From an uncultured Campylobacter sp. (lineage in GTDB: Bacteria; Campylobacterota; Campylobacteria; Campylobacterales; Campylobacteraceae), in contig NZ_CALGPY010000006.1 in assembly GCF_937959485.1 (NCBI RefSeq), forward strand, positions 29,994-93,993: 64,000 nucleotides of DNA. The letters are read 5' to 3'. Every line of letters starts with the position of its first letter. The first letter of the stretch is position 1. Below, piece after piece: positions 17,848 through 63,903 of the stretch. Below the pieces are notes generated by a model that saw only the letters and a list, made by a program, of their open reading frames with translations, was not told the DNA's origin and searched no databases. The translations under genes and the position numbers were made by a program.

Positions 17848-18597
17848 TCAGAGATCCTTAGAAATTTCAAAGCCGAATTCGTTGAAGCTTGTACCTAGCG
17901 GAGCTTTAAATTTAAGCCCTAAAATTTCAGTCTCGTACGAGTGCAGAAACATCCGCTTCGCGCGGCTTTTAGCGTATTTTTCATCGCCTATTACGCCATA
18001 GCCCGCGTTCGCCAGATGCACACGGATCTGATGCGTCCTACCCGTCTCGATCCGCACTTTTACGAGCGATTTTTTGCCGCTTATCATCAGCGGATAAACC
18101 TCGCTAAATGCGCTCTTGCCGTTTGGCGAAATTTTAGAAAACGCGCCGCTTCTGGTCTTTATCGTCAAAATCGGCTCGTCAAATTTCATCTCTTCGCTCA
18201 CGATCCCTTTTACGATCGCGATGTAGCTTTTCTTCACGCGCAAATTTTTAAATTCCGCAATCGCCGCTTCGCGAAATTCCTCGTTCTTATATAGCAGCAC
18301 GACGCCGCTAGTCTCCTTATCCAGGCGGTTTAGAAGCCCGAATTTGTAGATTTTTTCCAAATTTTCGCTACTCATAAAGGGCGGCTTATTGACCGCCAAA
18401 ACGTTCTCATCCTCGTAAATGATCGCGGGTTTTGCGGGCTTCATCACGCTAAATTTAGTATTTTCGCCGAGCATCTCGCGCGCTAGAGCGATCTTTGTGC
18501 CGCGCGCGCTTACAAGCCCCGCGTCGATGAGAGCCTTGGCTTCGTTGTGCGAGATGTTTTCCTGCGCCGCCAGCAGCTTGTAGGCTTTTTCTTGCAT
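17848..18597 (-). CDS. RluA-family RNA pseudouridine synthase with an N-terminal S4-like domain
   Basis: 249 aa. RLDKETSGVVLL and TGRTHQIRVHL. Confidence 0.9.
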   Translation of the reverse strand: MQEKAYKLLAAQENISHNEAKALIDAGLVSARGTKIALAREMLGENTKFSVMKPAKPAIIYEDENVLAVNKPPFMSSENLEKIYKFGLLNRLDKETSGVVLLYKNEEFREAAIAEFKNLRVKKSYIAIVKGIVSEEMKFDEPILTIKTRSGAFSKISPNGKSAFSEVYPLMISGKKSLVKVRIETGRTHQIRVHLANAGYGVIGDEKYAKSRAKRMFLHSYETEILGLKFKAPLGTSFNEFGFEISKDL

Positions 18598-19985
18598 TAA
18601 ATTCTTTCCTTAATTAAATTTTCTATCTCTTGCAGATCGCAAATTTTATCTATCCGCGTTCCCTTTAGCGGCTCTTTTAAAGCGTTTGAAATTTCGTTCG
18701 CGTCGCACAGAGCGATGTTTTGCACGAGCGCATACAGCGCCTTTTGATTATGAAAAAATCGTCCGCTGATGATCGGCACGCCGAAGCTCGCCGCCTCGAT
18801 CGGGCTATGTCCGCCGATATTGCGCAAAAAACTGCCGCCTAAGATCACGACGTTTGAAATTTTATAAAAGTTCGCTAGCTCCCCGAAGGCATCGAGCAAG
18901 ATAAAATCGCTCCCAAGCCCCGCGCCGCCGCTAAACCGCTCAAAGCTAAGCCCATGCTCGCGCGCCCAAGTCTTGCAAATTTCACGTACCTTTTCGAAGC
19001 GCTCCGGATGTCTCGGCGCCAGGATGATTTTTAGCTTTTGCGGAGCGGCGGTCGAAGCCGCCGTATTCGGTGCGGTAGAATTTAAAGACGCGCCGTTTAA
19101 AGGCGCCGTATTCGGCACGGCGGACGAAGCATCGCTTGAGCTCGCCGTATCCAAAGAAGCCGCGTTTAAATTTACCGGCTCAGTCGAGCCCGTCTCGCCG
19201 CGAAGCTCAGCCGCAGGCAAGCTCCTATCGCCATTAGAGCCCGTTGTGCGCGGGTATTTTTCGAGAGCACTCTGCGAGCCGTGAAATTTTATAAAATCGT
19301 TTAAATTTGATAAAACAAGCTCCTCTTCGCCCTCGTGAGTGTTTGAGATCGTAAGCACAAAGCTATTTGCGGACGCAGCAGAATAATCCTTCGTCGCAAC
19401 GGCGATATTCGCGCTTTTTATGTTGCCCGCGACCCTTATATTTTTTGCGCCGAGCTCCCGCAGCCGCGCCGCATCAAGCTCGCTTTGCGCAAGCACCAAA
19501 TCGATATTTTCAAACGCTTTGCGATAATAAAACTTAAAACGCAGATAACTCTCGTACGAGCGGTCGCTAATGCGCGCATTTAGCAGGATAACGTAGCTTC
19601 CGCGCGCCTTGGCGGAACGGATCAAATTTAGCCACAGCTCCGCTTCAAAGATCACCAGCACGCGGCTGCCTGCAAGCCAAAACGGAAGCCAGTTTTCAAA
19701 CGGCAGGTAGCGAGAGTTCGGCGTGAGCGCACGCGCCGCACCGAAGCCCGTCTGCGTGGTCGTGCTAAGCGCGACGCTCTCAAATTTAGAAATTAGCGGC
19801 GCGAGAGCATTTACCTCGCCCAGGCTGCAAGCGTGAAAGTGCACCGCTGCGGGGCTAAATTTGGGGTTTTTGTATAGAAAAAATCGCGCCTTCAGGCTCG
19901 TACGGTATTTTTTTTTAAAGCTTAGGATAAAAATAAAAGGCGCAGCTGCAAGCCACGCCAAAAACGCCAAGGCGGTGTAGATCAC
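18597..19985 (-). CDS. waaA: 3-deoxy-D-manno-octulosonic acid (Kdo) transferase carrying an internal low-complexity insertion
   Basis: 462 aa. HFHACSLGEV and NTHEGEE...LAPRHPERF are KdtA/WaaA motifs. About 90 aa rich in S/A/N/T (GSNGDRSLPAAELRGETGSTEPVNLNAASLDTASSSDASSAVPNTAPLNGASLNSTAPNTAASTAAPQ) sit between them. Confidence 0.85.
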   Translation of the reverse strand: MIYTALAFLAWLAAAPFIFILSFKKKYRTSLKARFFLYKNPKFSPAAVHFHACSLGEVNALAPLISKFESVALSTTTQTGFGAARALTPNSRYLPFENWLPFWLAGSRVLVIFEAELWLNLIRSAKARGSYVILLNARISDRSYESYLRFKFYYRKAFENIDLVLAQSELDAARLRELGAKNIRVAGNIKSANIAVATKDYSAASANSFVLTISNTHEGEEELVLSNLNDFIKFHGSQSALEKYPRTTGSNGDRSLPAAELRGETGSTEPVNLNAASLDTASSSDASSAVPNTAPLNGASLNSTAPNTAASTAAPQKLKIILAPRHPERFEKVREICKTWAREHGLSFERFSGGAGLGSDFILLDAFGELANFYKISNVVILGGSFLRNIGGHSPIEAASFGVPIISGRFFHNQKALYALVQNIALCDANEISNALKEPLKGTRIDKICDLQEIENLIKERI

Positions 19986-21426: not shown

Positions 21427-22425
21427 CTACTTTGCGCTTTCATCCGCTTTGTCTGCGGCGTTTTTCTTGCAGTGGGCGTTTTTTAAATTTACGCCTGCGG
21501 AGTTTGCGTTTGCCGCGCCGCCCTCTTTGCCGCCTTTTTTATCGATGCATGCCGTGCCGCAAAGATCGGCGACATATTTTTGCGGATCTGCGTAGCAAAG
21601 CGCGCAGTTTTTGGCAAGATCGCGGATCTTTAAAATATAATCCTGCCTCTGCGTGACCGAGATCGCTCCGCGTGCGTCAAGGACGTTGAACGTGTGAGCC
21701 GCGAGCATGCAGTAATCATACGCGGGAAGCGCCAGGCCGTGTTTTAGGATGCTTTTGCACTCGCCGAAGCAGTTTTCAAACTGATTAAAAAGCATCGCGG
21801 TATCCGCAAGCTCGAAGTTGTATTTGCTAAACTCGAACTCGCCCCTTTTATGCACGTCGCCGTAGGTTACTAGCCCCGCTTTATCGTCCCAGACGATGTC
21901 GTAAACGTCGTCTTTATTTTGCAGATACATCGCCAAGCGCTCAAGCCCGTAGGTGATCTCGCCGCTAATTAGCTCGCACGTGATGCCGCCTACTTGCTGA
22001 AAATAGGTAAACTGCGTCACCTCCATGCCGTCTAGCCAAACCTCCCAGCCAAGCCCCCAGGCTCCTAGCGTCGGGCTCTCCCAGTTGTCTTCCACGAAGC
22101 GGATATCATGACTTTTAAGATCTAACCCCAGCTTTTCCAAGCTTTTTAGATAGAGTTCTTGGATATTATCCGGGCTCGGCTTTAAGATCACCTGAAACTG
22201 ATAATACGCGCCGAGGCGGTTTGGGTTTTCGCCGTAGCGCCCATCTGTTGGGCGACGCGAGGGTGCTACGTATGCCGCGCGCCAAGGTTTGCTTCCTAGA
22301 CTGCGCAAAAAGGTAGCCTGATGATAGGTGCCTGCGCCCGCGGGCATATCGTAGGGCTGAACGAGCAAGCAGCCCTGCTCGTGCCAGTAATTTTGAAGCG
22401 TCAAAATAATCTGTGAAAACGTCAT
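21427..22425 (-). CDS. glyQ: glycine--tRNA ligase alpha subunit with a C-terminal tail of about 45-50 aa
   Basis: 332 aa. [19 protein letters not shown] and the rest are highly conserved GlyQ. The tail (...[38 protein letters not shown]) is not part of the usual GlyQ. Confidence 0.95.
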
Positions 22426-29124: not shown

Positions 29125-29889
29125 ATGCAGGTAAAACTGCGGCTCGCAACGCCGCAAGATGCGGAGGCGCTGCTTGAAATTTACGCGCCTTACGTAAAAC
29201 AAACGGCGATCAGCTTCGAATACGACGTGCCCAGCGCCGCGGAATTTGCGGAGCGCATCGAGCAAACGCTGCAAAGATACCCCTATCTGCTCGCTTACGC
29301 AAGCGACGAGGCGGCAGGCGCAAACGATGAACGGGATGAAAATTTTAAAATTTCTGCGGGCGCAGAGAGTGAAATTTCGCCCGCAGACGAAGCGCGAGAT
29401 CGCACAAACGCCGCGACGAAACAAAATGGCGCAAATTTAATCGTCGCGGCAAAGCAAAGCGGCGCAAATTTAAAACCGAATCAAATCCTCGGCTACGCCT
29501 ACGCTTCGGTTTTCAAAGAGCGGGCGGCATACGATTGGTCGGCGGAAAGCTCGGTCTATGTATCGCAAAACGTGCGCGCTCTGGGTATCGGCAGGCTGCT
29601 CTACGAGACGCTACAGCGCGCGCTCAAGGCTCAAAACATCGCAGATATGAACGCTTGCATCGCTTGCGGAGATGACAAATATCTAAACGACGCTAGCGTG
29701 CGATTTCACGAGCGTATGGGCTTTCGCTTCGTCGGCAGATTCGAGCGCTGCGCCTATAAATTCGGCCGCTGGTACGATATGGCGTGGATGCAAAAGCCGA
29801 TCGGCGAGCATCTGCAAAATCAGCCCGCAATGAAGCCTTTCGCGCGCTTTAGAGATGAAATTTGCGCGGGCGCGGGCATTAAAATTTAA
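29125..29889 (+). CDS. GNAT N-acetyltransferase (phosphinothricin acetyltransferase-like) with an internal low-complexity insertion
   Basis: 254 aa. RLATPQDAEALLEIYAPYV...GYAYAS...RALGIGRLLY...NDASVRFHERMGF. About 55 aa inserted (DEAAGANDERDENFKISAGAESEISPADEARDRTNAATKQNGANLIVAAKQSGANLKPNQ). Confidence 0.85.
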   Translation: MQVKLRLATPQDAEALLEIYAPYVKQTAISFEYDVPSAAEFAERIEQTLQRYPYLLAYASDEAAGANDERDENFKISAGAESEISPADEARDRTNAATKQNGANLIVAAKQSGANLKPNQILGYAYASVFKERAAYDWSAESSVYVSQNVRALGIGRLLYETLQRALKAQNIADMNACIACGDDKYLNDASVRFHERMGFRFVGRFERCAYKFGRWYDMAWMQKPIGEHLQNQPAMKPFARFRDEICAGAGIKI

Positions 29890-29904: not shown

Positions 29905-30708
29905 TTGACGCACTTTATCATAGACGACGAAAATATCGACGTCGATAATATCTTCGACGTCGTAAATCTAAAAGAGGGCGACGAGCTAAATATCGTCTCC
30001 AACACCGCTAAAAAGATCGGCGCCTTGACCCTTGCGCGCCTATCCAAGATGGGCGTTAGCATAGGCGAGGTTTTTACGATCGGTAAGCAAAGAAAGGACT
30101 TCGCCGATAAGATCATCGTGTTTTTGATGGGCAAGCTCTGCGGGCAGGAGGGCAAGATCGGCATCGTCAGCAACGACAAATTTTACGACGACGTGATAGA
30201 ATTCTTTAACAATCTAAACTACCGCAAAAATCCTAAATTTGAAAAGATCAGTCTAGCCTCGCACGCCGCAGGAGCGAGCGCAAAACAAAGCAAAGCAAGC
30301 GGCGCAGCGGAGAAAAAAGCCCAAAAAGCGGAGCCGAAGGCCGTGCAACAGGAACAAAAGGCTGCAAATTCTAAAATCGCCAAAGCAGACCTCGCCGCGG
30401 CGGAGGCGCTGATCCCGCAGTGCGTGAGCCTGCAAGCCCTCTATGCCGCGTGCGTCGCAAAGCTCGGCAGAGCCAAAGGCTGCGAAGCCTACCGCGAGAT
30501 CAAGGACGGCGCGCGGACGCGATACGCGAGCATCGCCTACGATAGCGACTTAAAAGACGGCGCCGTAAGGCGAAACGCGATCAAACTCTACCGCGAAAGC
30601 GGCGGCGATATGGCGGAATTTCACAATAAGCTGACGAGCGAATACAAACACGCGGGACCTGAAATTTATAAAGAATTTAAAGAAAAACTCGTCGGAAAGA
30701 TGATCTAG
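29905..30708 (+). CDS. hypothetical protein (N-terminal alpha/beta domain, A/K/Q-rich linker, C-terminal helical domain)
   Basis: 267 aa ORF with core-like codon composition. I recognise no motif with confidence. Confidence 0.5.
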   Translation: MTHFIIDDENIDVDNIFDVVNLKEGDELNIVSNTAKKIGALTLARLSKMGVSIGEVFTIGKQRKDFADKIIVFLMGKLCGQEGKIGIVSNDKFYDDVIEFFNNLNYRKNPKFEKISLASHAAGASAKQSKASGAAEKKAQKAEPKAVQQEQKAANSKIAKADLAAAEALIPQCVSLQALYAACVAKLGRAKGCEAYREIKDGARTRYASIAYDSDLKDGAVRRNAIKLYRESGGDMAEFHNKLTSEYKHAGPEIYKEFKEKLVGKMI

Positions 30709-33620: not shown

Positions 33621-33645
33621 ATTCTATTTTATCCTTATAAGGCTT

Positions 33646-43290: not shown

Positions 43291-44445
43291 ATGATACTGA
43301 TCGCAGGACCCTGCGTGATCGAAAGCCGCGAGCTGATAATGCAAGTCGCGGAAAGTTTGCGCAAATTTAACGAAATAAGCGGGGTGGAATTTTACTTCAA
43401 AAGTAGCTTCGATAAAGCCAACCGCACCAGCATCTCAAGCTTCCGCGGCCCGGGGCTTGAGCGCGGCTGTGAAATTTTAGCCGAAGTAAAGGAAAAGTTC
43501 GGCTATAAAATTTTAACCGACATCCACGAAAGCTACCAAGCAGAGCCCGCCGCGCGCGTCGCCGACGTGTTGCAAATACCTGCGTTTTTGTGCCGCCAAA
43601 CCGACCTACTCGTCGCTGCAGCCAGCACGCAAGCGGTAGTAAACATCAAAAAAGGTCAGTTTTTATCGCCACAGGTGATGAAACACAGCGTCGAAAAGGT
43701 GCTGCAAACCCGCAGCGCACGGGCTTATACTCCGCAAAGCGGCGCGGCATCTAGCGATACAAAGGCCGCTCAAAACAGCGCCTGCTCCGACGATGCCAAA
43801 ATTTGCGGTGCGCCGAGCGACGCTCGAAGCAGTACAGATAGCGGATCTTTGGCGTTAGACGCGCAAAATTCTTGCGGCGCACAGTCGGGCGCACAAAATT
43901 TTATTCATACTTGCGGCACTAAAAGTGGTGCCGAAAATGCTGCTAAAGGTACGGCGACACCTTGTGCCGCGCAAAGCGATAACGAAGCGCAAAACACGCC
44001 GCAGCCAAACTTATCTCATACTTGCAACGCGCAAGACAGCTCGATAAGTGCTGCACAAAATGCCCCACAGCCAAGCGGCGAAGAGATGCACGATCTGGCA
44101 CGCCGCCACGGCGTTTGGCTCACCGAGCGTGGCAGCACCTTCGGCTACGGAAATTTGATCGTCGATATGCGCTCGCTGCCGATTATGCGCGAGTTTGCGC
44201 CGGTCATTTTCGACGCTACGCACAGCGTGCAGATGCCTAGTATCGGCGCTACGAGCGGCGGCGACTCGCGCTTCGTGCCGTACCTTGCACGAGCGGCGGC
44301 GGCCGTGGGCGTGGACGGCTTTTTTTACGAAACGCACCCAGATCCCGCCCACGCGCTTTCTGATGGACCGAATATGCTAAATTTGCAGCAGCTAGAGCGC
44401 GTCGTAGCGCAGACGCTCGCAATTCAAAAAGCGCTCGGATTTTAG
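43291..44445 (+). CDS. kdsA: 3-deoxy-8-phosphooctulonate synthase (KDO8P synthase) with a low-complexity insertion of about 130 aa
   Basis: 384 aa. [47 protein letters not shown] ... [39 protein letters not shown]. The conserved blocks are split by an S/A/Q/N-rich insert. Confidence 0.9.
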
Positions 44446-45682: not shown

Positions 45683-46459
45683 TCATGGGCTTTCATATAG
45701 CCCGTTAGATTTTAAATAATAGATTTTATCCGCGATTTTATCGATGAAATTTTTATCGTGCGAAACGATGATTTCGCTTACGTCAAGCCCCGCCAAGATC
45801 CCCGCCACGCGCTCCTGCATCGCCTCATCAAGTGCCGTCGTAGGCTCGTCCAGTAGCAGTATCCTAGGCTCGCACACCAGCGCACCCGCAAGCGCCACCA
45901 GTTTTTTCTCGCCGCCGCTTAGATGAAAGGGCACTCGCTCGCGCAGATGTTCGATGCCCAAGCGCCACAGCGTCTCCAGCACCTTGCGCTCGATCTGCTC
46001 TTCACTTAAAATTTCAAGCTTTTTTAGATGATCGTTTTCGCTGCCCTGCCTTAAAATTTCCGCCTTACGACTAAAAAATTTAGAAAAAATTCCACGCCTT
46101 TGCTCCACATTTCGTGCTCGTTTTAACCGCTCATTTTGCGCACGCAGGCTAAATGCGACGTCCTCAAACACGCTCGCGCACAAAAATTGATCGTCGCTGT
46201 TTTGAAATAAAAACCCGATCTCGTGGCGAAATTTTGCAAAATCCTCCACACACTCAAGCTTCTCGCTGAAAAGCTCGATCTCACCCTCGCCCCATTGCCT
46301 TAGGCCGCCTAAAATTTGAAGCAGGCTCGTCTTGCCCTGCCCGTTCGCGCCCAAGATCGCTACTTTTTCCTTATGCCCTACGCTCAAATTTACGCCGCGA
46401 AAAATTTCTCGCTCGCCGTTTTTAGCGCTTATTCCATACGCCTTAAGCGAGCAACTCAT
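45683..46459 (-). CDS. cbiO: ECF-type Ni/Co transporter ATPase (CbiO/NikO) with an internal insert of about 40 aa
   Basis: 258 aa. GANGQGKTS (Walker A), LSGGEKK (signature), LLLDEPT (Walker B). The extra segment AQNERLKRARNVEQRRGIFSKFFSRKAEILRQGSENDHLKKLEI lies between the Q-loop and the signature. Confidence 0.88.
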   Translation of the reverse strand: MSCSLKAYGISAKNGEREIFRGVNLSVGHKEKVAILGANGQGKTSLLQILGGLRQWGEGEIELFSEKLECVEDFAKFRHEIGFLFQNSDDQFLCASVFEDVAFSLRAQNERLKRARNVEQRRGIFSKFFSRKAEILRQGSENDHLKKLEILSEEQIERKVLETLWRLGIEHLRERVPFHLSGGEKKLVALAGALVCEPRILLLDEPTTALDEAMQERVAGILAGLDVSEIIVSHDKNFIDKIADKIYYLKSNGLYESP

Positions 46460-47103: not shown

Positions 47104-47723
47104 TTGCGCGCTCTTTTCGCTAGCCACATTAAGCCAAAAAAGCCGAAAATCAAGGCCAAACAAAGCGCGATTTTAGGCGCCTCGGCGGACTGGCTTTGAA
47201 ACGCCATGCTCCTAATATCGCTCTTAGGGCTTTCTTTCGGCGAGATGCTTTGCGAGGCTGAATTTTGCAAAGGTTTGGAAACACTTGAAATTTTATTTTC
47301 AGGCGTACTGGCTTTTGGCGCGATATTTTCGGGCGCGCTGCCTTCGGGCGCGGAATTTTTAGCGGCGTCTAAATTTTGAGGTTCAGAATTTTGCGGCGTG
47401 GAATTTTCAGGATCACCGGAATTCTGCAGCGCAAAGTCCTCGGTGCTAAATTCCATCTGCGCGCCGTGTCCTGCACCCCCGTAAATTTGAATAGTAAAAT
47501 TTTTAGCTGGAATCTTTATGCTCGCAAGTCCCTCTTTATCGGTCCTAGTGCGCAAAATTTCACGCCCGTCCGCACTGATTAAAACTTCGCACTCTATGCA
47601 AGGGGAATTTTTATAAAAATAGCTATAAATCGCTACCCTATCGCCCTCTTGCGTCGCGAAAAGATGAAGCGCATGCGAAAATGCAAAAGAGCTCAAAATC
47701 GCTAAGAAAAATAGCGCTCTCAT
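47100..47723 (-). CDS. Ni/Co transporter accessory protein: signal peptide, beta-rich domain, low-complexity linker, C-terminal TM anchor (occupies the NikL/CbiN position)
   Basis: 207 aa between cbiM and cbiQ. The S/P/E/N-rich stretch is QNSGDPENSTPQNSEPQNLDAAKNSAPEGSAPENIAPKASTPENKISSVSKPLQNSASQSISPKESPKS. Confidence 0.5.
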   Translation of the reverse strand: MRALFFLAILSSFAFSHALHLFATQEGDRVAIYSYFYKNSPCIECEVLISADGREILRTRTDKEGLASIKIPAKNFTIQIYGGAGHGAQMEFSTEDFALQNSGDPENSTPQNSEPQNLDAAKNSAPEGSAPENIAPKASTPENKISSVSKPLQNSASQSISPKESPKSDIRSMAFQSQSAEAPKIALCLALIFGFFGLMWLAKRARK

Positions 47724-48319: not shown

Positions 48320-49064
48320 GGCTCGCCTCCTTTAAATAGCCCCCGTTTTTCAGATGCGCAAAAACGCGGGATCTAGCTAAATTTGAGGCATTTGCGACCT
48401 TTGTGATAATCGCTTTGATTACTACAGGTCTTGCTTTTACGGCTTTAATCGCGGCAAAATTTGCGGCTGTAAAACTCGCGGCTTGCGTCCTATTTGCGGC
48501 GGCTATTAGCGCAAAACTCGGAGCGGTCTCGGAACCGCTTACGGAACTGGTAAATTTGATAAATTTTACGGCTCGCACGGCGCAAGAATTTTTAATTGCC
48601 GTATTTGCGGAAGCGGCAAGTAGATTTCTCGACGTAAAATTTGAGGCTCCGATCGATCTCGGTGCAACGCTCCCGCGGTAAAACAGAGCCTGCAAAATTT
48701 CAAAAAACGAAATTTTACGTGCTGGTATTTTACGCTCGTAAATCCATGGATATGAAATTTTACGACTCGAAGCTACTAAGAGCGGATTCCTACCAAGCAA
48801 AATTCCACGCAGCAGAGCTCCGTTACTTAAAATTTTACTCGGCGAAATTTTGCTCCGTAAAGTTTTAACCAAACCCCGAGACGCAGACTGTGCGCGGGTG
48901 CAAAACGACAAAATTCTACCCCGTAAAATTTCAGCCGCAGAATTCGCTGGAAATTTTACACCCAAAAGCAAAACGCGCGAAAATAAAATTTCAAAGCCCT
49001 GCCAAAGCGTAAATTTAAATTTATCCGCAGCGACGCAAATTTCGCCAGAAAAAAGAGATCTCAC
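48309..49064 (-). repeat. AAATTT-punctuated repeat DNA filling the nikK-like/cbiM gap; forms a 251-codon open frame of uncertain reality
   Basis: The region is made of irregular (A)AAATTT(T/C)AC units with GC-rich spacers. The ORF starts 12 nt after the upstream stop and ends 11 nt inside the cbiM start. Confidence 0.6.
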
Positions 49065-51224: not shown

Positions 51225-51632
51225 GTGCGAAAGCCTTACAAAAACCCAAATTCTAACGCCCGCTTCGCAACCGCTGGATTTTGCGCGATAAAATTTAGAA
51301 AGCGCGGCGTTAAATTTTATGAAGCTAGATTGCGCGAGACGGATTTTTTAACTCGCGCGGCAGAATTGTACGGCACGAAATTTCACGAGATAAAGCTCCA
51401 GACGCCAAATTCAGAGCTTAAAATGAAATTTAGCAAAGTGAAATTTGGCGGGGTAAAATTCCGCGGCGGCGCGCTTTTAAAATTTGCCGCCGCAAAAGGG
51501 CTACGACGCAGTCATAGCCTTTACGCCGCCACGCCCTTTAAATTTATCGCGCTGCAAAACGCAGGATTTTTTGCAACAAAATTTGGCGAAGCGGAATTTT
51601 GCGGCGCGAAACGGCGCGGAGCGGGCGCGTGA
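51225..51632 (+). repeat. repeat DNA filling the serS-nadD gap; forms a 135-codon open frame with 15-nt (5-codon) periodicity in part
   Basis: GTG lies 8 nt after the serS stop. The TGA overlaps the nadD GTG (GTGA). It contains AAATTTAGCAAAGTG AAATTTGGCGGGGTA AAATTCCGCGGCGGC. Confidence 0.55.
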
Positions 51633-52993
51633 AGATCGCGCTTTTCGGCGGCAGTTTCGATCCGCCGCATGCAGGACACGACGCCGCGGTGAAGGCGATC
51701 TTATCCAGCCTGAAGCCCGACTTGCTGATCATAATGCCGTCGTTTCTAAACCCGTTTAAAAAGAGTTTTTCGGCGCCTCCGCAGCTGCGGCTCAGATGGT
51801 GCCGCGCGCTGTGGAACGACGCCCCGGGCGTGGAGATAAGCGATTATGAAATTTCGCAAAACCGCCCGGTACCCACGATACAAAGCGTGAAATTTCTGCT
51901 CGAAAAATACGGCGGAAACAGCAAAATCGCGGCAGAGACGGCAGCCGCGACGAGCGAAACCCAAAGCGCGGATAAAATTTCAAGCGCCGCTTCAAGCAGA
52001 GCGTCCGGCGCCGTCATGAGAGAAATTTCAAACTCCGTCGGGGATAAAATTTCGAGCGCAAGCAAAATTCCGAGCGCTGCCCGAAATGAAATTTCAAATG
52101 CAAGCGAAATTACAGTAACAGATGAAATTTCATGTGCTGTCAGGAACGAAATTTCAGACGTTGTCAAAATTCCAGGTGCTGTCGAGAGTGAAATTTTAAA
52201 CGCCGTCACAGGCAAAATTTCAAGCTTCGTCAAAGCCTCAAGTGCCGTTGGAGACGAAATTTCAAATGTAAACAAAATTCCAAGCGGTAATGCAAATTGC
52301 ATGGCTGATACAGATGACGCGAATTTCGTGGGTAGCGCAAATAGTGCCGGTGACACAGGCGGCGTAAATGACGCGGATAATGCGAGCGGCGCAGACACCG
52401 CACCAAAGCTCTACATCGTCGTGGGTGCCGACAACATGGCCGAGCTTCATAAATGGCGAGATTTTAGCGAACTGCAGAAATTGGCGGAGTTTATCGTGCT
52501 TACGAGGCCCGGCTACGAGATCCCGCGGCAGTGGGCGGGCCTAAGGCGGATCGAGATTGCCGTAGATGCGAGCTCAAGCGGTTTTAGGCGAGATTTCAAA
52601 GGCGAAATCCCGCCCAAGATCGCAGCAGAGGTCATAAAATTTTATAAAAGGAAAGATATGCAAGATCCAAAGCAAAGGGCAGAAAAGATCGCCGAAATTT
52701 TAAACGAAAAGAAAGCCGAAGACGTCCAGATCATCGATATGGAGGGGCGCGAATATATCGCGAAATTCGTAGTTATCGCCACTATGCTGACCGCCCGCCA
52801 CGCAGCCTCGCTCATCGAGGAGCTAAAAAGCGTGCTCAAGCCGCTCGGCGAGGAGTTTTTGGCTATCGAAAGCGGCGATGAGTGGAGCGTCGTCGATCTC
52901 GGCGACATCATAGTCCATCTCATCAGCGAGGCTTACCGCGCCAAATACAATATCGAGGACTTCCTCGACAAGCTCAAAAAAGAGCAATTTTAA
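51629..52993 (+). CDS. nadD: nicotinate-nucleotide adenylyltransferase fused in frame to the ribosome silencing factor RsfS, with a repeat insertion of about 160 aa inside NadD
   Basis: VKIALFGGSFDPPHAGH (start GTG 51629) ... VPTIQSVKFL ... [insert] ... LYIVVGADNMAELHKW. Then, with no stop, MQDPKQRAEKIAEILNEKKAEDVQIIDM...WSVVDLGDIIVHL, which is RsfS-like. Confidence 0.85.
   Translation: MKIALFGGSFDPPHAGHDAAVKAILSSLKPDLLIIMPSFLNPFKKSFSAPPQLRLRWCRALWNDAPGVEISDYEISQNRPVPTIQSVKFLLEKYGGNSKIAAETAAATSETQSADKISSAASSRASGAVMREISNSVGDKISSASKIPSAARNEISNASEITVTDEISCAVRNEISDVVKIPGAVESEILNAVTGKISSFVKASSAVGDEISNVNKIPSGNANCMADTDDANFVGSANSAGDTGGVNDADNASGADTAPKLYIVVGADNMAELHKWRDFSELQKLAEFIVLTRPGYEIPRQWAGLRRIEIAVDASSSGFRRDFKGEIPPKIAAEVIKFYKRKDMQDPKQRAEKIAEILNEKKAEDVQIIDMEGREYIAKFVVIATMLTARHAASLIEELKSVLKPLGEEFLAIESGDEWSVVDLGDIIVHLISEAYRAKYNIEDFLDKLKKEQF
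52022..52290 (+). repeat. in-frame degenerate tandem repeat inside nadD, with units of 18, 24 or 42 nt each starting (G/A)AAATT(T/C/A)
   Basis: I parsed 12 consecutive units by eye. Every unit length is a multiple of 3. They encode (E/K)I(S/P)... repeats. Confidence 0.8.
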
Positions 52994-57396: not shown

Positions 57397-58419
57397 ATGG
57401 CCACTAGACACCAAGCCAGGCTCGCTGCGATCTCGCTGCTTTACTCCCGGGATATGAACGGCGGCGGCGAGGACTTTGCGGACGAATATCTGGAGGAAAA
57501 GCGCATTCGCAACGAGCAGCGCAACTGGACGCTGGCGCTTCTGCGCGGCGCTAGCGAAAATCTCGCCACGGTCGATGCGCTGATAGACGAAAATTTAAAG
57601 GAATTCAAGCTCGCCGAAATTTCGGCTCTGGAGCGCGCGATACTGCGGCTCGGGGCGTATGAGTTGCGCTTTACAGACACGGACGCGGGCATCGTCATCA
57701 ACGAAGCGATCAACTCCGCCAAGGAGCTTGGCATCTCGCCAAGATTTATAAACGGCGTGCTGGACGCGCTAAAAGATAGCCCCGTAAACATCGCGGCGGA
57801 TAAAATTTCCAAGCCGAATACGGCGACAAGCGTAAATTCCGAGCTATCCACAGCGACAAGCGAAAATTTCAAGCCCGCTGCGGCGAAAAACTCCGCTATT
57901 TCAGACAGCAACGTTGCGGCGAAAAATTTCATCCCCGCAGATATGGACGACGAGACGAAAAATTTTACCAAGGCAAAGAGGAGCAGCACGCCGAAAAATT
58001 CTACGGCAAGCAGAAGCAGACCGTCTAAAAAGCCCGCTAATTTGAAAACTCGCAGTGCGCCCGCCAAAAAATCCGCCGCGAGCAAAAAATTTAAAACGGA
58101 GGGAAATTTCAAGACCGGAGATAAATTCAAGACGGAGAAAACGGGCAAAAATTTCAAAACGGGCAAGCGAAGTAAAAATTTTAAGGCGAGCGAACGAGGA
58201 AAAGACGCCGCGCCGAAAAGAGAGGGCGCTGATAGAAATTTCAAGGTAAGCAAAAATGCGGCGCCGAAAAAGAGTGCTTCGGGTAAAAATACTGCGCCCA
58301 AAAGTAGCGCGGGGCGCAAAAGCTCTATCGCGCCGAAAAAATCTGCGGGCGGCAGAGGCGCCGTCTCAAAAAGACCTGCGGGCAACAAAGGCGCGGTACG
58401 CAGTAAGGATAAACGGTGA
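57397..58419 (+). CDS. nusB: transcription antitermination factor NusB with a lysine-rich C-terminal tail of about 215 aa
   Basis: The N-terminal 125 aa or so are NusB ([13 protein letters not shown]...[10 protein letters not shown]...VINEAI..AKE...FINGVLD). The remainder is K/S/A/N-rich with repeated KNFK and APKKSA units. The stop overlaps the pyrF GTG. Confidence 0.85.
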
Positions 58420-59102: not shown

Positions 59103-59222
59103 CGCTCGAGCCTGCGTAGAATTTGGTGAAAAATTATTTTAAACATGGTTTTAGCGCGAAAGAAATTTTAATTAAATCATCGCACAAAGGCGGCTCGGAT
59201 GACGTCGAAGCGCCGTCGTCAT

Positions 59223-59453
59223 CTTTTTACAAAATCCGTTGGGAATTGAAACATCTGTACCGCAAATTCTTGCCCTTTTACGGCGGCAAGTAGAATTCCA
59301 TCCCGTTGGGAATTGAAACGCTTTTTTGAGCTCATTTTGGGCGAAAGCGGCATGAGTAGAATTCCATCCCGTTGAAGTTCGAAACAAACGCATCAGATTT
59401 TTGCATTTGGCGCAAGGCGGAAGCGTAAATTTACTCCGTTTGGGATTAAAAAC
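59223..59453 (+). CRISPR. short decayed CRISPR-like array: 4 repeats (2 intact, 2 degenerate) and 3 spacers, with no cas genes in the window
   Basis: Repeats end at 59252, 59319, 59385 and 59453. R2 is GTAGAATTCCATCCCGTTGGGAATTGAAAC and R3 is GTAGAATTCCATCCCGTTGAAGTTCGAAAC. R1 shares only the 3' 17 nt and R4 is diverged. Spacers are 37, 36 and 39 nt and unrelated to each other. The repeat has an internal AATTCC/GGAATT stem and an ATTGAAAC 3' end. Confidence 0.6.
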
Positions 59454-59732
59454 GTTTAAACTTTACCGCGCCCAAGCTCCCTGCTAGCTTGCGGATAAAA
59501 TTTCCGATAATGAGCGCGGCGGCGGACGTCTTAACACTAAAAAGCGGCGCGCATAAGCGCAGCGGTGGCCCGGCGGCGAGATAAAATTTTAAAAATTTTT
59601 CGCACCGCGTGGATAAAATTTTAAAATTTGCCTCACAAGAGTGAAATTTTGAAATTCCGCACTCTCAAGGGGTTTTAAAATTTTATCCAAATGGCGAGCC
59701 TGGCGAAATTTGAATGAAGATCGGAGTAAAAT

Positions 59733-59985
59733 TTGAGTAAAGGCGCGAGTGATTTTAAGAAAATCCCATATGTCGGCGAGGCGACCGAATCAGATCTGTT
59801 GGCGCTAGGCTACGAGGGCATCGCTTCGCTAAAGGGCGCGGATCCGGACGAGATGTTTGAACGCACAAAGGCCCTCGGGCGCGGCAACGACAGGTGCATC
59901 CTCTATGTTTACCGAGGCCAGCTACTACGCCAGCACGCCTCGTCCCGACAAAGCCAAGCTGAAATGGTGGCTTTGGAAGGACTAA
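59733..59985 (+). pseudogene. small helix-hairpin-helix protein (Cdd1 / pathogenicity-locus family), frameshifted
   Basis: Frame 1 gives KKIPYVGEATESDLLALGYEGIASLKGADPDEMFERT...RCILYVYR and then unrelated residues. The conserved family C-terminus EASYYASTPRPDKAKLKWWLWKD-stop is encoded in another frame from about 59912 to 59985. Confidence 0.6.
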
Positions 59986-60595: not shown

Positions 60596-61453
60596 ATGAA
60601 ATTTTTTGCTACTTTGATTTTGTGCGCGAGCGCGCTTTTGGGCGAGACGATCAGCGCGAAATATGAGATTTCGTTTGGCGTTTTCGGCGCAGTCGGCAGC
60701 GCAAATACGCGGCTCGTGCGGCAGGGCGATCGCTACGAGATCGTGATGGACGCCGTTGCGCAGGGCGTCGCAGGCAGCCTGAGCGGACAAAGGCGCGAGA
60801 GCTTCCGCTCGAAGGGGCGCGTCGTGGCGGGGCTTTTGATGCCCGATCTCTATGTCCACGAGGTTTCGCGCAAAAAGGGCAAAACGACGAAAAACGAGCG
60901 CAAAACTTACGCCTTCGACTATGCGCGCAAAACGATAAAATTTCAAAAGTTCAAGGGCGCGGGCGGCGAGCTGCAGCTCGTAAGCGATGAAATTTTGCCC
61001 TATTTTGCGACGAATGACCTGCTGAGTTTGTTTTTCAATTTCTCTAAAATCCCGCACTCGGGCGATAAATTTTTCGTCCGAGCCGCGGGCGCAAAAGGCG
61101 CCGACGGAAGGATCGACATCGAAAGGCCGCGCGGAAGCGCCGCCGCAAATATCGCGAGCGAGCTTGGCGTCGCGCTGCCTAGCGAGACGGATACAAACTC
61201 CGGCGCAGCAGCAAGCGCAAGCTCTAGCGGAGCAGATACGAAAACCGGCACAACGGACGTAAATTTTAAAGGGCACGGCGCGGGCGCAGATAAGCAGGCT
61301 GCAGCGATCTACGTGGTTTTCATCAACCAGCCGATATTCTCGAGCAGCCGAGGCGAGCTGCACCTGAGCCTAAACGAGCGTGGTTACGCCGATCGCGCCG
61401 TTTTGAAGGACGTGCTGCTCTTCGGCGACATCCGCGCGCGGCTCGTGGAATGA
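60596..61453 (+). CDS. secreted DUF3108-like protein with an internal low-complexity insert
   Basis: 285 aa. Signal peptide MKFFATLILCASALLG and a beta-rich body. Preferred over the antisense ORF 60473..61363, whose translation is Arg/Ala-rich junk. Confidence 0.65.
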   Translation: MKFFATLILCASALLGETISAKYEISFGVFGAVGSANTRLVRQGDRYEIVMDAVAQGVAGSLSGQRRESFRSKGRVVAGLLMPDLYVHEVSRKKGKTTKNERKTYAFDYARKTIKFQKFKGAGGELQLVSDEILPYFATNDLLSLFFNFSKIPHSGDKFFVRAAGAKGADGRIDIERPRGSAAANIASELGVALPSETDTNSGAAASASSSGADTKTGTTDVNFKGHGAGADKQAAAIYVVFINQPIFSSSRGELHLSLNERGYADRAVLKDVLLFGDIRARLVE

Positions 61454-61481: not shown

Positions 61482-62498
61482 TTAAAAATTTTTAACTCTT
61501 AAAAGATAATTCGGCGCGTCTAGGTCTTTATTAAATTTTGATTTCATATATTTTTTAAGCTCGTTATATTCTTTATTAGTGGGTATAAATATAAAAAATT
61601 TATTGTAAAGCGCGTCTATAATTAAAGCATCGACAAACCTACATGAAAATAAGCCGCCCTTAAATAGATGAAAAATCATTTGCGGTATAAAAAGAAAGAT
61701 GACCGCTCCCATGCAGCAGAATAACATTATGAAAACTATCATGGAGTCATCAAATATCGCACCATAAATATAAGCGAGTATGTATATGGCAAGACAGGTT
61801 TTTCCTATAATTCTTTCCGTTTCCGTATATTTTCGTGTCTCGCTTTCATAAACAAGTGCGAAAGTCTTTTTAAAATATAAAATATCATCAAATTTCATTA
61901 CAAGCTGCTCGCCTGATTTTATACATTTTATGCTTGAGTTTAAAAATATAAATTTCCTTCCGTAATGCTGCGAAAAACCCTTAAGAGCCCTAGCAACCAA
62001 AGGTGCAGTGAGCAAAATATTTGCAACTTTTCTATCATAGGGGATGTTAGATACTAAATTTATAAACATGGCAAAACAAAGCAACGCTACTATAGCTATA
62101 ATATTTACGATCGGCATATAGTCTTTGATGACCAACGGCTCTTTATCGTAATCTCGAGTTTTAGCGCCCCGCGATGAAACACCGCCCGGGTTTAAATTTT
62201 GAAATTTTACCTCGGCTTGTGAGTTTAAATTCGTGCTTTTTAAATTTGTATCTCGAAAATTTGCGCCGCAAAGATAATCGGCTTGCGGTTTGGGATCTGT
62301 TTGATCAAAATTCGTATTTTTAAAGTTTTTGCTACTCAAATTTGCATCGTTTAAATTTAATGATCTGCGATCCGTTGCATCGCTTAAATCCGCATTGTCA
62401 AAGATGTCGGCGCTAGCGCCTTTTCGAAGCTTTTGCTTGAAAGCCCGACGTCGTTCATTTAGAGGCTTTTTAGATTCCTCAAGCAGCACTTTATCCAA
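61482..62498 (-). CDS. membrane protein with an N-terminal pentapeptide-repeat-like region
   Basis: 338 aa in an AT-rich islet. ADLSDATDRRSLNLNDANLSSKNFKNTNFDQ...GANFRDTNLKSTNLNS, followed by several TM helices. Confidence 0.55.
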   Translation of the reverse strand: MDKVLLEESKKPLNERRRAFKQKLRKGASADIFDNADLSDATDRRSLNLNDANLSSKNFKNTNFDQTDPKPQADYLCGANFRDTNLKSTNLNSQAEVKFQNLNPGGVSSRGAKTRDYDKEPLVIKDYMPIVNIIAIVALLCFAMFINLVSNIPYDRKVANILLTAPLVARALKGFSQHYGRKFIFLNSSIKCIKSGEQLVMKFDDILYFKKTFALVYESETRKYTETERIIGKTCLAIYILAYIYGAIFDDSMIVFIMLFCCMGAVIFLFIPQMIFHLFKGGLFSCRFVDALIIDALYNKFFIFIPTNKEYNELKKYMKSKFNKDLDAPNYLLRVKNF

Positions 62499-62676
62499 AA
62501 AATATCCTTAAGCTTAAACGCTCGTATTTTATAACTTTAGGCTTAAATCGCAATAAATCGCGCTTGTTTCGCGCATTTTTGATTTTATTTAAAATGTGTT
62601 TTGCATCGCGCCGCATACAGTGCAATTACGGCAGCAATGGCGCGGCAACGGAAACAAACCGCGTTTTTGGATCGAT

Positions 62677-63903
62677 TCATTTCTTAAATTTTCTTATGAA
62701 ATCGCTCGCGTCCCGCGCAGCCATCGCAGAGCTCATAACGGCGATCCTGTCGGCTCCCGCGCGTAGAACGACGGCAAAATTGCGCAGCGTTATGCCGCCG
62801 AGCGCGTAAATCTCGCCGTCGTAAAACCCACGCACGGCGCGGATCAAATTTAGCCCCTTCGGCGCGAGCCCCGCCTTGCAATCGGTCGCGAAGATGTGGC
62901 TCAGGCAGATCGCGTTCGCGCCCAGCTCCAGCGCCTCGCGCGCCTCCGCCTCGCTGTGGCAGGAAGCGACCAATTTTTTGAAATTTGCGCGCAAAAACTC
63001 CGTGCCGCGCACCGCGCTGAAGCTCCGCAAAACCCCGAGCGGCAGCCATAAATTTCTCTCGCCCGCCCGCAGTGCAAAATCTGCAAAATTATGCACAAAG
63101 ATCGCAGGCAGACGCCTTGCACTCTCTGTGCTCTGCGCGCCCTTCGCACTCTGCGAGTTTTCCGCCTCTTTCACGCTCTGTGAATTTTCTACGCCCTCTA
63201 TACTTTCCGAGCTTTCCGTGTACTGCGCGCTCCACGCACTCCCCGCATTTTTTGCACTATGCACATCATTCGCATTTTCTTTACTTTGCGCACTCCGCAT
63301 ACTTTCCGCATTTTCTGCGCTCCGTACGCTTTCTGCCGCTAGTTTTGTTTCGCTTGCAGCGCCGCGAAGCGAAATTTCACTAGGCGCGCTATCATTCGCG
63401 CGATTTGCAGCGCCGGTAAAATTTTTAGATGAAATTTCCTCTAAAACACAAGCTAAATTTTTAGACTGGATTTTATCCGTAGCGGCGTGCTTGCAGGCCG
63501 TATCCGCGCAAAGCTCGCTTTTGCTTCCGCCTAAATGGAGCTTTTTTAATAAAATTTTGTCCTCGTTGCGCTCGTAGAGCGAAATTTTATCCGCGTAGGC
63601 CGCGCTTACGTCTAATCCGTCCGCAAAAGCTTGGGTTTCACTAAATTTAGCGGCACGAGCCTCATCTGCAAAAATCCCGCCCGCACAAGCTGTATCCGCA
63701 CAAAACCCGCTCTTGCAGGCGAGTAAAATTTTACCAAACAGCGTCGCATAGGCCGCTTCGTCTAAATCCTTTTCGCGCACGACGATCTCGCCTACGCCTG
63801 CCGCAGCAAAATCCGCTATGCGCGCAAGCAGCGCCGCCTCGCCACCGCAGAGCGCGCGATTTGTGATGATCGTAATGCGCGAAGCAAGCTCTAAATCTAG
63901 CAT
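62677..63903 (-). CDS. thiE: thiamine-phosphate synthase (ThiE/TenI family) with a repeat insertion of about 200 aa
   Basis: 408 aa. N-terminal ITIITNRAL...GVGEIVVREKDL and C-terminal VASCHSEAEAREALELGANAICLSHIFATDCK...IYALGGIT...GADRIAVMSS are ThiE-like. The middle is S/A/E/N-rich repeats (SAENAESMRSAQSKENANDVHSAKNAGSAWSAQ...). Confidence 0.75.
   Translation of the reverse strand: MLDLELASRITIITNRALCGGEAALLARIADFAAAGVGEIVVREKDLDEAAYATLFGKILLACKSGFCADTACAGGIFADEARAAKFSETQAFADGLDVSAAYADKISLYERNEDKILLKKLHLGGSKSELCADTACKHAATDKIQSKNLACVLEEISSKNFTGAANRANDSAPSEISLRGAASETKLAAESVRSAENAESMRSAQSKENANDVHSAKNAGSAWSAQYTESSESIEGVENSQSVKEAENSQSAKGAQSTESARRLPAIFVHNFADFALRAGERNLWLPLGVLRSFSAVRGTEFLRANFKKLVASCHSEAEAREALELGANAICLSHIFATDCKAGLAPKGLNLIRAVRGFYDGEIYALGGITLRNFAVVLRAGADRIAVMSSAMAARDASDFIRKFKK

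Follow-up and report, generated by a model that had tools for sequence, protein, structure and literature searches.

Long low-complexity segments in conserved proteins of an uncultured Campylobacter clade as probable lineage-specific, near-neutral expansions

A 64-kb stretch of DNA (the window) from an uncultured Campylobacter clade (genome approximately 49% GC), of which C. concisus is a relative, was found to carry long in-frame segments within genes that are otherwise well conserved. With a probability of roughly 0.7, we regard these segments as lineage-specific, intrinsically disordered, near-neutral low-complexity expansions that arose by slippage and local duplication in permissive sites. 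In this one clade, short coding stretches would have been duplicated and then re-duplicated, likely by replication slippage and recombination between short repeats, at sites that are structurally permissive: loops between secondary-structure elements, domain linkers, and C-termini. The segments would be translated within the host protein, presumably be retained in the mature form, and protrude from the folded core. Both sequence and length would drift almost neutrally, with selection chiefly barring stops and frameshifts and holding hydrophobic residues low. A point against this proposal is that it leaves the restriction to the clade (present here, absent in C. concisus) without explanation.

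Frequency and position of the segments

By one uniform criterion, we counted polar low-complexity stretches that were 40 aa or longer. Such a stretch was present in 11 of the 53 ORFs of the window and in 3–5 ORFs per locus of the sister clade, but in none of the 77 ORFs from loci of C. concisus and other Campylobacter. About 20% of the genes in the 64 kb are affected, an unusually high density for a bacterium. The segments comprise 36–215 aa, are polar and rich in A, S, K, N, G, E, and D, which is a composition typical of disordered regions, and occur in proteins that are functionally unrelated to each other. No Pfam domain was found when the inserts alone were searched.

A preliminary description of the window had reported extra in-frame segments in at least ten essential housekeeping genes. 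The ten that it named were all recovered at about the reported positions (Table 1), eight of them by comparison with Pfam, solved structures, or C. concisus orthologs, and those of the Ni/Co accessory protein and the DUF3108-like gene by comparison within the clade only. The word essential is not appropriate for several of these genes, since PAT and the DUF3108-like gene are not essential. Beyond the ten, similar segments were detected in orf29905 and orf61482.

Table 1. Extra segments and intergenic filler DNA in the window
Feature	Position	Strand	Gene or ORF	Residues	Remarks
WaaA insert	19038..19283	-	18597-19985	~235-316	S/A/T/N/P-rich
GlyQ C-terminal tail	21430..21585	-	21427-22425	281-332	
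PAT (phosphinothricin-type acetyltransferase) insert	29299..29472	+	29125-29889	59-116	
orf29905 internal segment	30205..30423	+	29905-30708	~101-173	A/K/Q/S-rich; polar low-complexity scan
KdsA insert	43714..44088	+	43291-44445	142-266	absent in C. concisus and 4z1a
CbiO/EcfA-like ATPase insert	46010..46129	-	45683-46459	~111-150	charged
Ni/Co transporter accessory protein linker	47202..47447	-	47100-47723	~93-174	polar low-complexity scan
Filler DNA, cbiM/DUF4198 gene	48320..49064	.			non-coding, AAATTT-punctuated; AAATTT 21.5/kb, GC 0.45
Filler DNA, serS/nadD	51225..51598	.			non-coding, AAATTT-punctuated; translations rich in K-F (=AAATTT)
NadD insert	51917..52405	+	51599-52993 (NadD-RsfS fusion)	~107-269	cryptic tandem repeat
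NusB C-terminal tail	57772..58416	+	57397-58419	126-340	basic, K/S/A/N-rich
DUF3108-like gene segment	61127..61330	+	60596-61453	~178-245	S/A/T/G/D-rich
orf61482 N-terminal polar region	62139..62498	-	61482-62498	1-120	N/D/K/S-rich; membrane protein
ThiE insert	63100..63717	-	62677-63903	63-268	

When mapped onto structures, the inserts fall in loops between conserved blocks or at termini. In WaaA, the chain of 2xci jumps from 222 to 225 while the query goes from 234 to 317 (polar low-complexity flag at residues 245–321). The PAT insert lies between residues 60 and 61 of 5jtf (chain 5–60 corresponds to query 3–58, and 61–168 to 117–229), and the NadD insert between residues 103 and 105 of 1kam (5–103 corresponds to query 9–106, and 105–175 to 270–340). 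In CbiO, approximately 36 aa are added where 3gfo goes from residue ~111 to 115 (chain 115–220 corresponds to query 151–252), and the Pfam ABC_tran match spreads 188 residues over a 137-position profile. Solved ThiE/TenI structures align to residues 303–406 of ThiE only, and a segment of about 200 aa, the C-terminal half of which is an S/A/E/N/Q-rich repeat region, parts the N-terminal strand-helix from the remainder.

At the termini, the Pfam tRNA-synt_2e match of GlyQ stops at residue 280 of 332 (profile position 275 of 278), and residues 289–332 were flagged as polar low-complexity. The Pfam match of NusB covers residues 5–125 of 340, and the tail ends in a GTGA overlap with the start of pyrF; C. 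concisus NusB consists of residues 1–126 only, lacks the tail, and is directly followed by pyrF. The linker of the Ni/Co accessory protein joins the N-terminal domain to a C-terminal membrane anchor. The DUF3108-like gene shows a weak Pfam DUF3108 match restricted to residues 22–149, and in orf61482 the low-complexity flag covers residues 34–74.

The preliminary description had taken the segments to be insertions and named two alternatives, assembly or sequencing artefacts and ancestral domains lost elsewhere, for which no support was found. Hundreds of protein clusters, built from assemblies in ENA, Logan, NCBI, and JGI and in part from contigs of 250–390 kb, contain the same inserts, which are therefore not artefacts. 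Ancestry is contradicted by their absence from C. concisus, from solved references such as KdsA 4z1a and B. subtilis NadD, and from 74 of 77 KdsA representatives. With both alternatives refuted by independent assemblies and by the relatives and references, we put their probability close to zero; the sequence comparisons support the view that inserts and tails are derived and lineage-specific.

The KdsA insert is predicted to be disordered and varies in length

In the alignment of KdsA to the solved structure 4z1a, query residues 2–148 and 267–380 correspond to chain residues 12–158 and 160–274, so that about 118 aa occupy the place of one reference residue. The AF2 model places the insert between helix 127–145 and helix 263–272 with a pLDDT of 39–48 (residues ~146–262), compared to 94–98 in the core, and contains no secondary structure inside the insert except for one short helix (250–256). 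The model thus predicts that the KdsA insert is disordered. Among the best 150 KdsA representatives, drawn from 1.8 billion clusters, the query's own clade alone aligned across the insert, and an extra loop of any kind was seen in 1–3 of the 77 cleanly aligned representatives outside the clade.

The lengths of the inserts proved to be hypervariable across numerous independent assemblies, ranging from ~27 to 129 aa in KdsA (289–388 aa for natural proteins) and from 182 to 250 aa in ThiE. The best 120 full-length KdsA matches and the query display at least 25 insert lengths (63–129 aa) and at least 40 gap patterns, but essentially one gap pattern in the core; pairwise identity among these 120 matches falls from 97.8% in the core to 76% in the insert. 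The ThiE insert was present in all of the 120 homologs listed, with 23 gap patterns and a pairwise identity of 78%, compared to 92% in the core. The PAT insert is shorter in one sister locus (L081), and the NadD insert differs from that of another (L001) by about 60 aa, the DNA not being alignable. Conserved signature indels are short, of fixed length, and used as phylogenetic markers. The segments described here resemble them in being specific to a lineage and inserted at constant positions of conserved proteins, but they are long and hypervariable within the clade.

The shortest KdsA alleles retain about 27 aa of the insert and are deletions between AAQ repeats; a 114-bp indel has AGTG..TGC microhomology at its ends. 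Neither of the two lists of the 120 best-scoring clusters included an insert-free allele, and the insert is conserved at both ends ([10 protein letters not shown]... and ...APQPSG). Part of the insert may be functional, or clean deletion may be hard.

Substitution rates and the possibility of function

The dN of the inserts was 2–14 times that of the cores. This applies to the NusB tail (0.06–0.09 against a core value of 0.011), to orf29905 compared with L081 (0.058 against 0.010, with 21 gap columns), and, within the clade, to the Ni/Co accessory linker (0.08–0.14 against 0.02, with 5–6 gap columns) and the DUF3108-like segment compared with L085 (0.068 against 0.012). Omega was 0.17–0.76 in the inserts and 0.04–0.23 in the cores, and the overall divergence of the inserts was similar to that of non-coding filler DNA. 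In the annotated frame the inserts gave an omega of 0.41, the lowest of the six frames, which is consistent with their translation. An omega below 1 that is lowest in the sense frame indicates that the peptides are under some selection. The same crude estimator, however, yielded 0.34–1.2 on non-coding filler, so the signal is weak either way. The opposite strand had been described as often open across the inserts. It is indeed open, but in one antisense frame only and for a compositional reason, as the segments contain little Tyr or His and the sense strand has a low T content; the coding signal of the antisense frame was no better than that of the sense frame.

Functional disordered domains under selection, for instance a basic RNA- or DNA-binding NusB tail, flexible linkers or spacers, 'entropic bristles' that enhance solubility, or condensate-forming regions, would account for the low omega in the sense frame and for the conserved ends of the KdsA insert in the absence of an insert-free allele among the listed clusters. 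The NusB tail fits this idea as well, being strongly basic, with an omega of 0.27–0.34 and a protein length steady at 340–345 aa, as do the short, charged CbiO insert, which shows no length variation or indels among the sister loci, and the first half of the ThiE segment, which is fairly conserved (majority-residue fraction 0.8–0.9). We nevertheless consider function unlikely as a general explanation: natural KdsA alleles dispense with about 100 of the 125 aa, half of the KdsA insert columns are variable, the segments contain no recognisable domain, the host proteins share no function, and the closest cultured relatives do without the segments. In addition, GC3 is 0.48 in the inserts compared to 0.62 in the cores, indicating weak codon adaptation.

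Internal repeats and the search for a shared element

Compared to codon shuffles, 8 of the 12 inserts contain an excess of repeated 8-mers (z 4–11.7; 5.8 in WaaA and 4.4 in orf61482), which is mostly not the case for size-matched core pieces. Tandem arrays were identified by TRF in the Ni/Co accessory protein (47294–47359, period 30/15) and in nusB. Since the repeats of the inserts are degenerate (60–77% identity), we infer slippage from such traces rather than having caught the process happening.

The preliminary description had compared the segments to Rickettsia palindromic elements. An in-frame mobile element of this or the MITE type would explain why the inserts are in-frame, placed in loops, and found in many unrelated genes, and the PAT insert shares 71% identity with an intergenic sequence over a single stretch of 45 nt (family D5). 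However, an all-vs-all BLAST of the 12 inserts revealed no shared DNA consensus, the longest words common to different inserts being 10–16 nt, and no dispersed repeat family covered more than one insert, AAATTT-rich short words aside. When AATT-containing words were masked, k-mer sharing between inserts and intergenic DNA was barely above that of core controls. The inserts showed no excess of secondary structure over shuffled sequences (z = -0.75, -1.9, and +1.75). Rickettsia palindromic elements likewise add in-frame peptides to many unrelated conserved genes and are tolerated as they lie outside the folded core, but they are fixed-size copies of an identifiable palindromic consensus (PMC1779305; PMC10969869); the Campylobacter inserts have neither consensus nor palindromic structure, and their lengths are continuous, with no element-sized units. 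Without a consensus and with folding no better than in shuffles, the analogy fails as a mechanism, and a mobile repeat element, largely refuted within the 64 kb, is very improbable.

By analogy, the best reading of the segments is that they are low-complexity expansions of the kind known from Plasmodium, which would be new for bacteria. In ordinary enzymes of Plasmodium falciparum and further eukaryotic parasites, conserved blocks are likewise separated by long segments that are hydrophilic and biased in composition. These segments form predicted non-globular surface loops with cryptic repeats, evolve fast, and vary in length from strain to strain; they are thought to be largely neutral products of slippage or unequal recombination (PMC5762703). 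In contrast to Plasmodium, the segments described here belong to a bacterium whose compact genome is not extremely AT-rich and is saturated with AAATTT, and they are composed of A/S/K/N/G/E instead of being dominated by Asn and Lys. Prokaryotic low-complexity regions are also compositionally biased, and slippage, recombination, and repair have been proposed as their sources (PMC6821194, PMC8004648). Surveys characterise them as uncommon in bacteria (PMC8004648) and, in many cases, as strongly conserved and functional (PMC6821194), whereas the segments of the window are very long, frequent, and among the least conserved parts of their proteins.

AAATTT motifs and intergenic filler DNA

AAATTT is the commonest hexamer of the window (28 times the zero-order expectation), and its density rises from 6.0/kb in coding cores to 12.4/kb in inserts and 16.3/kb in intergenic DNA. 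This twofold difference between inserts and cores may indicate that something besides simple slippage acts at the level of the DNA. Uptake motifs (USS/DUS) shape coding sequence in Pasteurellaceae and Neisseria. In C. jejuni, DNA uptake is restricted to RAATTY-methylated DNA (PMC10046745). As with these motifs, a short word is strongly over-represented, becomes more frequent where the protein is weakly constrained, and dictates some residues (E-I-S, K-F, N-F): 56% of the Ile and Phe residues in inserts are encoded inside RAATTY, compared to 13% in cores. The inserts and the filler could thus be one self-propagating RAATTY minisatellite, putative alleles rich in methylated RAATTY being favoured in uptake and recombination during natural transformation. 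Expansion would then be a DNA-level process, active at any site where the protein can accommodate it.

The NadD insert matches this description best, as it is a cryptic tandem repeat (family D2) of 24/42-nt units with a RAAATTTC core in each (AAATTT spacings of 48, 24, 42, 36, 24, 42, 24, and 42). AAATTT sites in inserts and filler are also conserved at 73–87%, compared to 43–60% for other hexamers, but other all-AT hexamers are conserved equally, so this conservation is not motif-specific. Moreover, the enrichment is window-wide, and C. concisus loci have an equal density (6.7–7.4/kb) and no inserts. With about 8 sites per kb everywhere, further sites should hardly raise uptake. We therefore consider this explanation quite improbable. 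The resemblance of the inserts to AAATTT-punctuated intergenic DNA, as noted in the preliminary description, holds for AAATTT density and for nadD, nusB, and PAT (27.6/kb in the PAT insert), which resemble the local filler; it does not extend to kdsA, waaA, and DUF3108 (AAATTT 5–8/kb, GC 0.56–0.60) or to the masked k-mers.

Under the expansion reading, the same genome would expand its AAATTT-rich intergenic filler as well. The filler at 48320–49064 contains a spurious 251-aa open frame; at approximately 13% divergence, frame-specific constraint was found in none of its six frames. The serS-nadD filler showed no frame-specific constraint either, and its length varies, with a 408 bp ORF here and 726–795 bp in sister loci.

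Polar Segments Lie Outside the Folded Cores of Housekeeping Proteins

The preliminary description named ten genes with extra in-frame segments, and this was borne out: Pfam matches were shortened in all of them save the Ni/Co accessory protein, for which no Pfam match was obtained. Similar segments were found in two further genes, orf29905 and orf61482. When the proteins were aligned to solved structures, the inserts of KdsA, NadD, WaaA, PAT and CbiO fell between neighbouring reference residues, outside the folded core (Table). For KdsA, we also predicted the structure with AF2. The informative run used 71 diverse sequences, while 34 near-identical homologs gave a mean pLDDT of only 31.7. The barrel was modelled with a pLDDT of 94–98, whereas residues ~146–262, between helix 127–145 and helix 263–272, reached 39–48 and had almost no secondary structure. 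According to PDB and Pfam alignments, and for KdsA alone structure prediction, the segments have no fold of their own and are placed between conserved blocks. When the insert peptides were searched alone, no Pfam family was detected, and tRNAs were the sole matches in an Rfam search. Inteins, which would carry a Hint/intein splicing domain and conserved junction residues, were also considered, but the inserts contain no Pfam family and their junctions and lengths are hypervariable, which rules this reading out. Furthermore, nadD is fused to rsfS (the gene for ribosomal silencing factor) in one continuous ORF, and this fusion is also present in three sister-clade loci (L001, L081 and L085).

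Table. Placement of the inserts and coordinates of other features in the window
Feature	Window position (strand)	Description	Basis
KdsA insert		~118 aa between residues 158 and 160 of 4z1a	PDB alignment
NadD insert		~163 aa between residues 103 and 105 of 1kam	PDB alignment
WaaA insert		~82 aa between residues 222 and 225 of 2xci	PDB alignment
PAT (phosphinothricin-type acetyltransferase) insert		~58 aa between residues 60 and 61 of 5jtf	PDB alignment
CbiO insert		~36 aa in helical subdomain relative to 3gfo	PDB alignment
ThiE		C-terminal 104 residues only alignable to solved structures	PDB alignment
GlyQ tail		52 aa past Pfam domain	Pfam
NusB tail		215 aa past Pfam domain	Pfam
nadD-rsfS	51599-52993 (+)	continuous ORF	
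Filler DNA	48320-49064	open, unconstrained	
Filler DNA	51225-51598	open, unconstrained	
Filler open frame	48309-49064 (-)	251 aa	
Filler open frame	51225-51632 (+)	135 aa	
orf61482	61482-62498 (-)	polar N-terminal region, C-terminal membrane part	
Low-GC island	30970-42523	array of small immunity-type genes, GC 0.30-0.36	
SUKH-1 gene	33060-33620	weak match, in low-GC island	
Two Imm41 genes	37113-37899	in low-GC island	
Tyrosine integrase	40758-41990	adjoins low-GC island	
tRNA-Lys/Asp/Val cluster	42223-42523	adjoins low-GC island	
CRISPR-like array	~59222-59470 (+)	3-4 copies	
Small ORF	59733-59985 (+)	in long pyrF-DUF3108 intergenic region	

Composition and Open Antisense Frames

The inserts have a biased, hydrophilic composition and are depleted of hydrophobic and aromatic residues. 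Compared to the cores, they are enriched in Ala (17.0% versus 10.6%), Ser (13.6% versus 5.9%), Lys (9.5% versus 6.5%) and Asn (7.9% versus 3.7%), and poor in Leu (4.1% versus 10.8%), Ile (3.7% versus 7.5%) and Tyr (0.8% versus 3.7%). They are also rich in Gly, Glu and Asp, and contain few Phe, Trp, Met and His residues. The GC3 value is 0.48 in the inserts and 0.62 in the cores.

It had been noticed that the opposite strand is often open across the inserts. This applies to one antisense frame, in which we counted 1.2 stops per 100 codons in the inserts compared to 3.7 in the cores; the other antisense frames are not depleted of stops. Stops in the open frame require Tyr or His/Gln codon contexts on the sense strand, and these are scarce in the inserts. 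The long antisense open frames are thus shadow ORFs.

The Segments Are Frequent in One Clade and Restricted to It

The window derives from an uncultured Campylobacter. Its seryl-tRNA synthetase is 97% identical to that of L001, which belongs to a metagenome-assembled Campylobacter genome, but only 70–74% identical to those of C. concisus and other Campylobacter. At the DNA level, the window and L001 share ~91–93% identity where they can be aligned. The GC content of the window is ~49%, except for a low-GC island at 31–42 kb.

All ORFs were screened with a uniform criterion (stretches of 40 aa or longer, low in entropy, hydrophobic residues not exceeding 15%). Polar low-complexity stretches were detected in 11 of the 53 ORFs of the window and in 3–5 ORFs per 20-kb sister locus, but in none of the 77 ORFs from loci of C. 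concisus and other Campylobacter, a comparison set without C. rectus, C. showae, C. gracilis and C. curvus.

Alignment of orthologs with C. concisus confirmed that the KdsA insert and the NusB tail are lineage-specific: KdsA of C. concisus has no such insert, and the NusB of this species ends immediately 5' of pyrF. When the best 150 KdsA representatives out of 1.8 billion clusters were compared, the insert could be aligned only within the clade of the query, and 1–3 of 77 cleanly aligned representatives outside it have any extra loop at this site. The segments are therefore not ancestral domains, since they are missing from C. concisus KdsA and NusB and from nearly all other KdsA representatives. 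Within the clade, the insert was present in all of the best 120 KdsA protein clusters, which originate from independent ENA, Logan, NCBI and JGI assemblies and are annotated no finer than Campylobacter sp.; the ThiE matches listed were likewise all insert-bearing and from independent assemblies. This recurrence excludes an assembly or sequencing artefact. A search with the KdsA core alone revealed no insert-less allele among the best 120 matches, the shortest protein having 289 aa. Our literature search revealed neither a description of the phenomenon in Campylobacter nor a paper dealing with this uncultured clade.

Insert Length and Sequence Change Rapidly

Comparison across strains revealed that insert length is hypervariable in KdsA, ThiE and NadD. 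KdsA proteins are 289–388 aa long. Among the best 120 matches of the full-length search and the query, the KdsA insert occurs in 25 lengths and 40 gap patterns at a pairwise identity of 76%, while the core shows essentially one pattern and 97.8% identity. Overall, this insert spans ~27–129 aa; the shortest alleles are deletions between AAQ repeats and retain ~27 aa of it. The ThiE insert varies between 182 and 250 aa with 23 gap patterns. The NadD insert differs from that of L001 by ~60 aa and cannot be aligned as DNA, although its flanks share ~97% protein identity. In-frame indels between sister loci were found in NadD, the Ni/Co protein, PAT and orf29905, whereas CbiO, the DUF3108-like protein and the NusB tail have few or none. 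The NusB tail is basic and length-stable, and its 214 codons are maintained without a stop in three genomes.

Relative to three or four sister genomes, dN in the inserts was 2–14 times that of the cores, and omega was 0.17–0.76 in the inserts compared to 0.04–0.23 in the cores. Of the six frames, the annotated one had the lowest omega (0.41). As the same estimator yields 0.34–1.2 for non-coding filler, omega lends only mild support to translation of the inserts. Further indirect signs of translation are the uninterrupted ORFs and the stop-free NusB tail.

Two orthologs differ in other ways. The PAT ortholog of L081 (2045–2741 of that locus) has a stop codon in the core, outside the insert, and was called as two ORFs; it is likely a pseudogene. 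When orf61482 was compared with its counterpart in L085 (11419–12408), the N-terminal polar region was conserved (dN 0.05), and the C-terminal membrane part was essentially replaced (dN ~0.75, 44 gap columns), which looks like an allelic, cassette-like swap.

The Inserts Point to Local Duplication and Slippage

The inserts had been likened to Rickettsia palindromic elements (RPE). In-frame placement agrees with this analogy, but two defining features of RPE were lacking, namely a shared consensus, as tested within 64 kb, and a palindromic hairpin, as tested for three inserts. An all-against-all BLAST of the 12 inserts revealed shared words of at most 10–16 nt, and no dispersed repeat family spanning several inserts was found in the 64 kb. 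Folding z-scores against shuffled sequences were −0.75 for kdsA, −1.94 for nadD and +1.75 for nusB, indicating no stable hairpin. The likeness to RPE (PMC1779305, PMC10969869) is thus limited to the outcome, namely in-frame segments in surface loops.

Instead, 8 of the 12 inserts contain more repeated 8-mers than their codon-shuffled versions (z 4–11.7), which mostly does not apply to matched pieces of the cores. The nadD insert consists of 24/42-nt units in a degenerate tandem arrangement, and TRF detected arrays in the Ni/Co protein gene and nusB. In kdsA, the two ends of a 114-bp indel share AGTG..TGC microhomology, and the loop motif QSGA/PSGE, present in C. concisus as a single copy (VSGDG), is repeated in the insert. 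Judged from these repeats and from the absence of a shared element, the inserts point to an origin by local duplication and slippage and not from imported DNA. Their closest match in behaviour is found in housekeeping proteins of Plasmodium, whose low-complexity inserts (PMC5762703) agree with them in composition, location, length polymorphism, cryptic repeats or microhomology, and fast evolution.

AAATTT Is a Group-Wide Signature

AAATTT is the top hexamer of the window, with 500 matches on both strands compared to 106 expected from shuffles (8.1/kb, 28 times the zero-order expectation). The motif is denser where constraint is weak: 6.0/kb in the cores, 12.4/kb in the inserts and 16.3/kb in intergenic DNA. 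Of the Ile and Phe residues in the inserts, 56% are encoded within RAATTY, compared to 13% in the cores. GCGCGC-type words are ~9-fold over-represented, and AT words alternate with GC-rich spacers.

The resemblance of the inserts to intergenic repeat DNA, as first described, holds for AAATTT density and for the nadD and nusB inserts, which look like two stretches of filler, the AAATTT-punctuated intergenic DNA (Table). Masking AATT, however, removed most of the k-mer resemblance and left sharing near the control level. Within this filler are two long open frames whose homologues carry gene calls in public assemblies. They are probably not genes, as indicated by ~13% divergence, variable length and no frame-specific constraint.

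Two C. concisus loci (L005 and L007) have 6.7–7.4 AAATTT/kb, yet no inserts, indicating that the enrichment is a group-wide signature and not peculiar to the insert-bearing lineage. Together with the effect of masking and the absence of enrichment from the kdsA, waaA and DUF3108-like inserts, this disfavours a specific, causal link between AAATTT and the inserts. AAATTT sites in the inserts were conserved at 73–87%, compared to 43–60% for other hexamers. This is not motif-specific, because the remaining all-AT hexamers are equally conserved (73–88% including AAATTT, for inserts and filler of the window versus L001, L081 and L083). GC-rich spacers therefore change faster than AT words, and the conservation of the latter could be due to mutation bias or constraint.

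In C. jejuni, methylated RAATTY is the motif needed for DNA uptake (PMC10046745), and a connection of the AAATTT signature with RAATTY methylation and uptake of DNA is plausible. It is improbable, in our estimation, that the clade harbours a self-expanding minisatellite filler with an AAATTT (RAATTY) core, growing both intergenically and in frame within genes and favoured by transformation. A drive at the DNA level would then use protein-coding loops as places to land and grow; transformation is proposed to favour the spread since Campylobacter DNA uptake, as known for C. jejuni, depends on methylated RAATTY. Such a transformation-linked drive is conceivable but unsupported. If true, it would be a counterpart, in bacteria and without transposition, of selfish in-frame elements.

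Low-Complexity Segments in a Compact Genome

Long disordered low-complexity regions are usually said to be scarce in bacterial proteomes. Surveys describe bacterial low-complexity regions as uncommon (PMC8004648), and in many cases as conserved and functional (PMC6821194). In contrast, the Campylobacter segments are long, hypervariable and present in about one fifth of the genes, and are in this respect new. A host-associated bacterial clade thus carries hypervariable segments of 36–215 aa, predicted to be disordered, in proteins such as enzymes that act in LPS, NAD, thiamine and tRNA metabolism, whose cores are under strong purifying selection. This provides a natural bacterial system for the tolerance of junk polypeptide by a compact genome, for permissive loops of well-known folds, and for the mutational or drive process that starts expansions. 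In practice, gene lengths are inflated, domain models are split into two matches, and public annotations list as genes long ORFs that are spurious, lying antisense or in filler. As highly polymorphic markers, the inserts also lend themselves to typing strains of an uncultured Campylobacter.

Other Features of the Window

The gene content of the low-GC island varies among sister genomes (L081 and L083). From its genes and flanks (Table), it resembles an island of polymorphic-toxin immunity genes that occupies a tRNA integration site. A small orphan CRISPR-like array has a ~30-nt repeat ending in CCGTTGGGAATTGAAAC and ~36-nt spacers, its last copies being degenerate. The window contains no cas genes, and the repeat was not found in the sister loci L085 and L001. 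The small ORF between pyrF and the DUF3108-like gene has a counterpart in L085 with a match to Cdd1 (PF11731), indicating that this intergenic region is not entirely non-coding.
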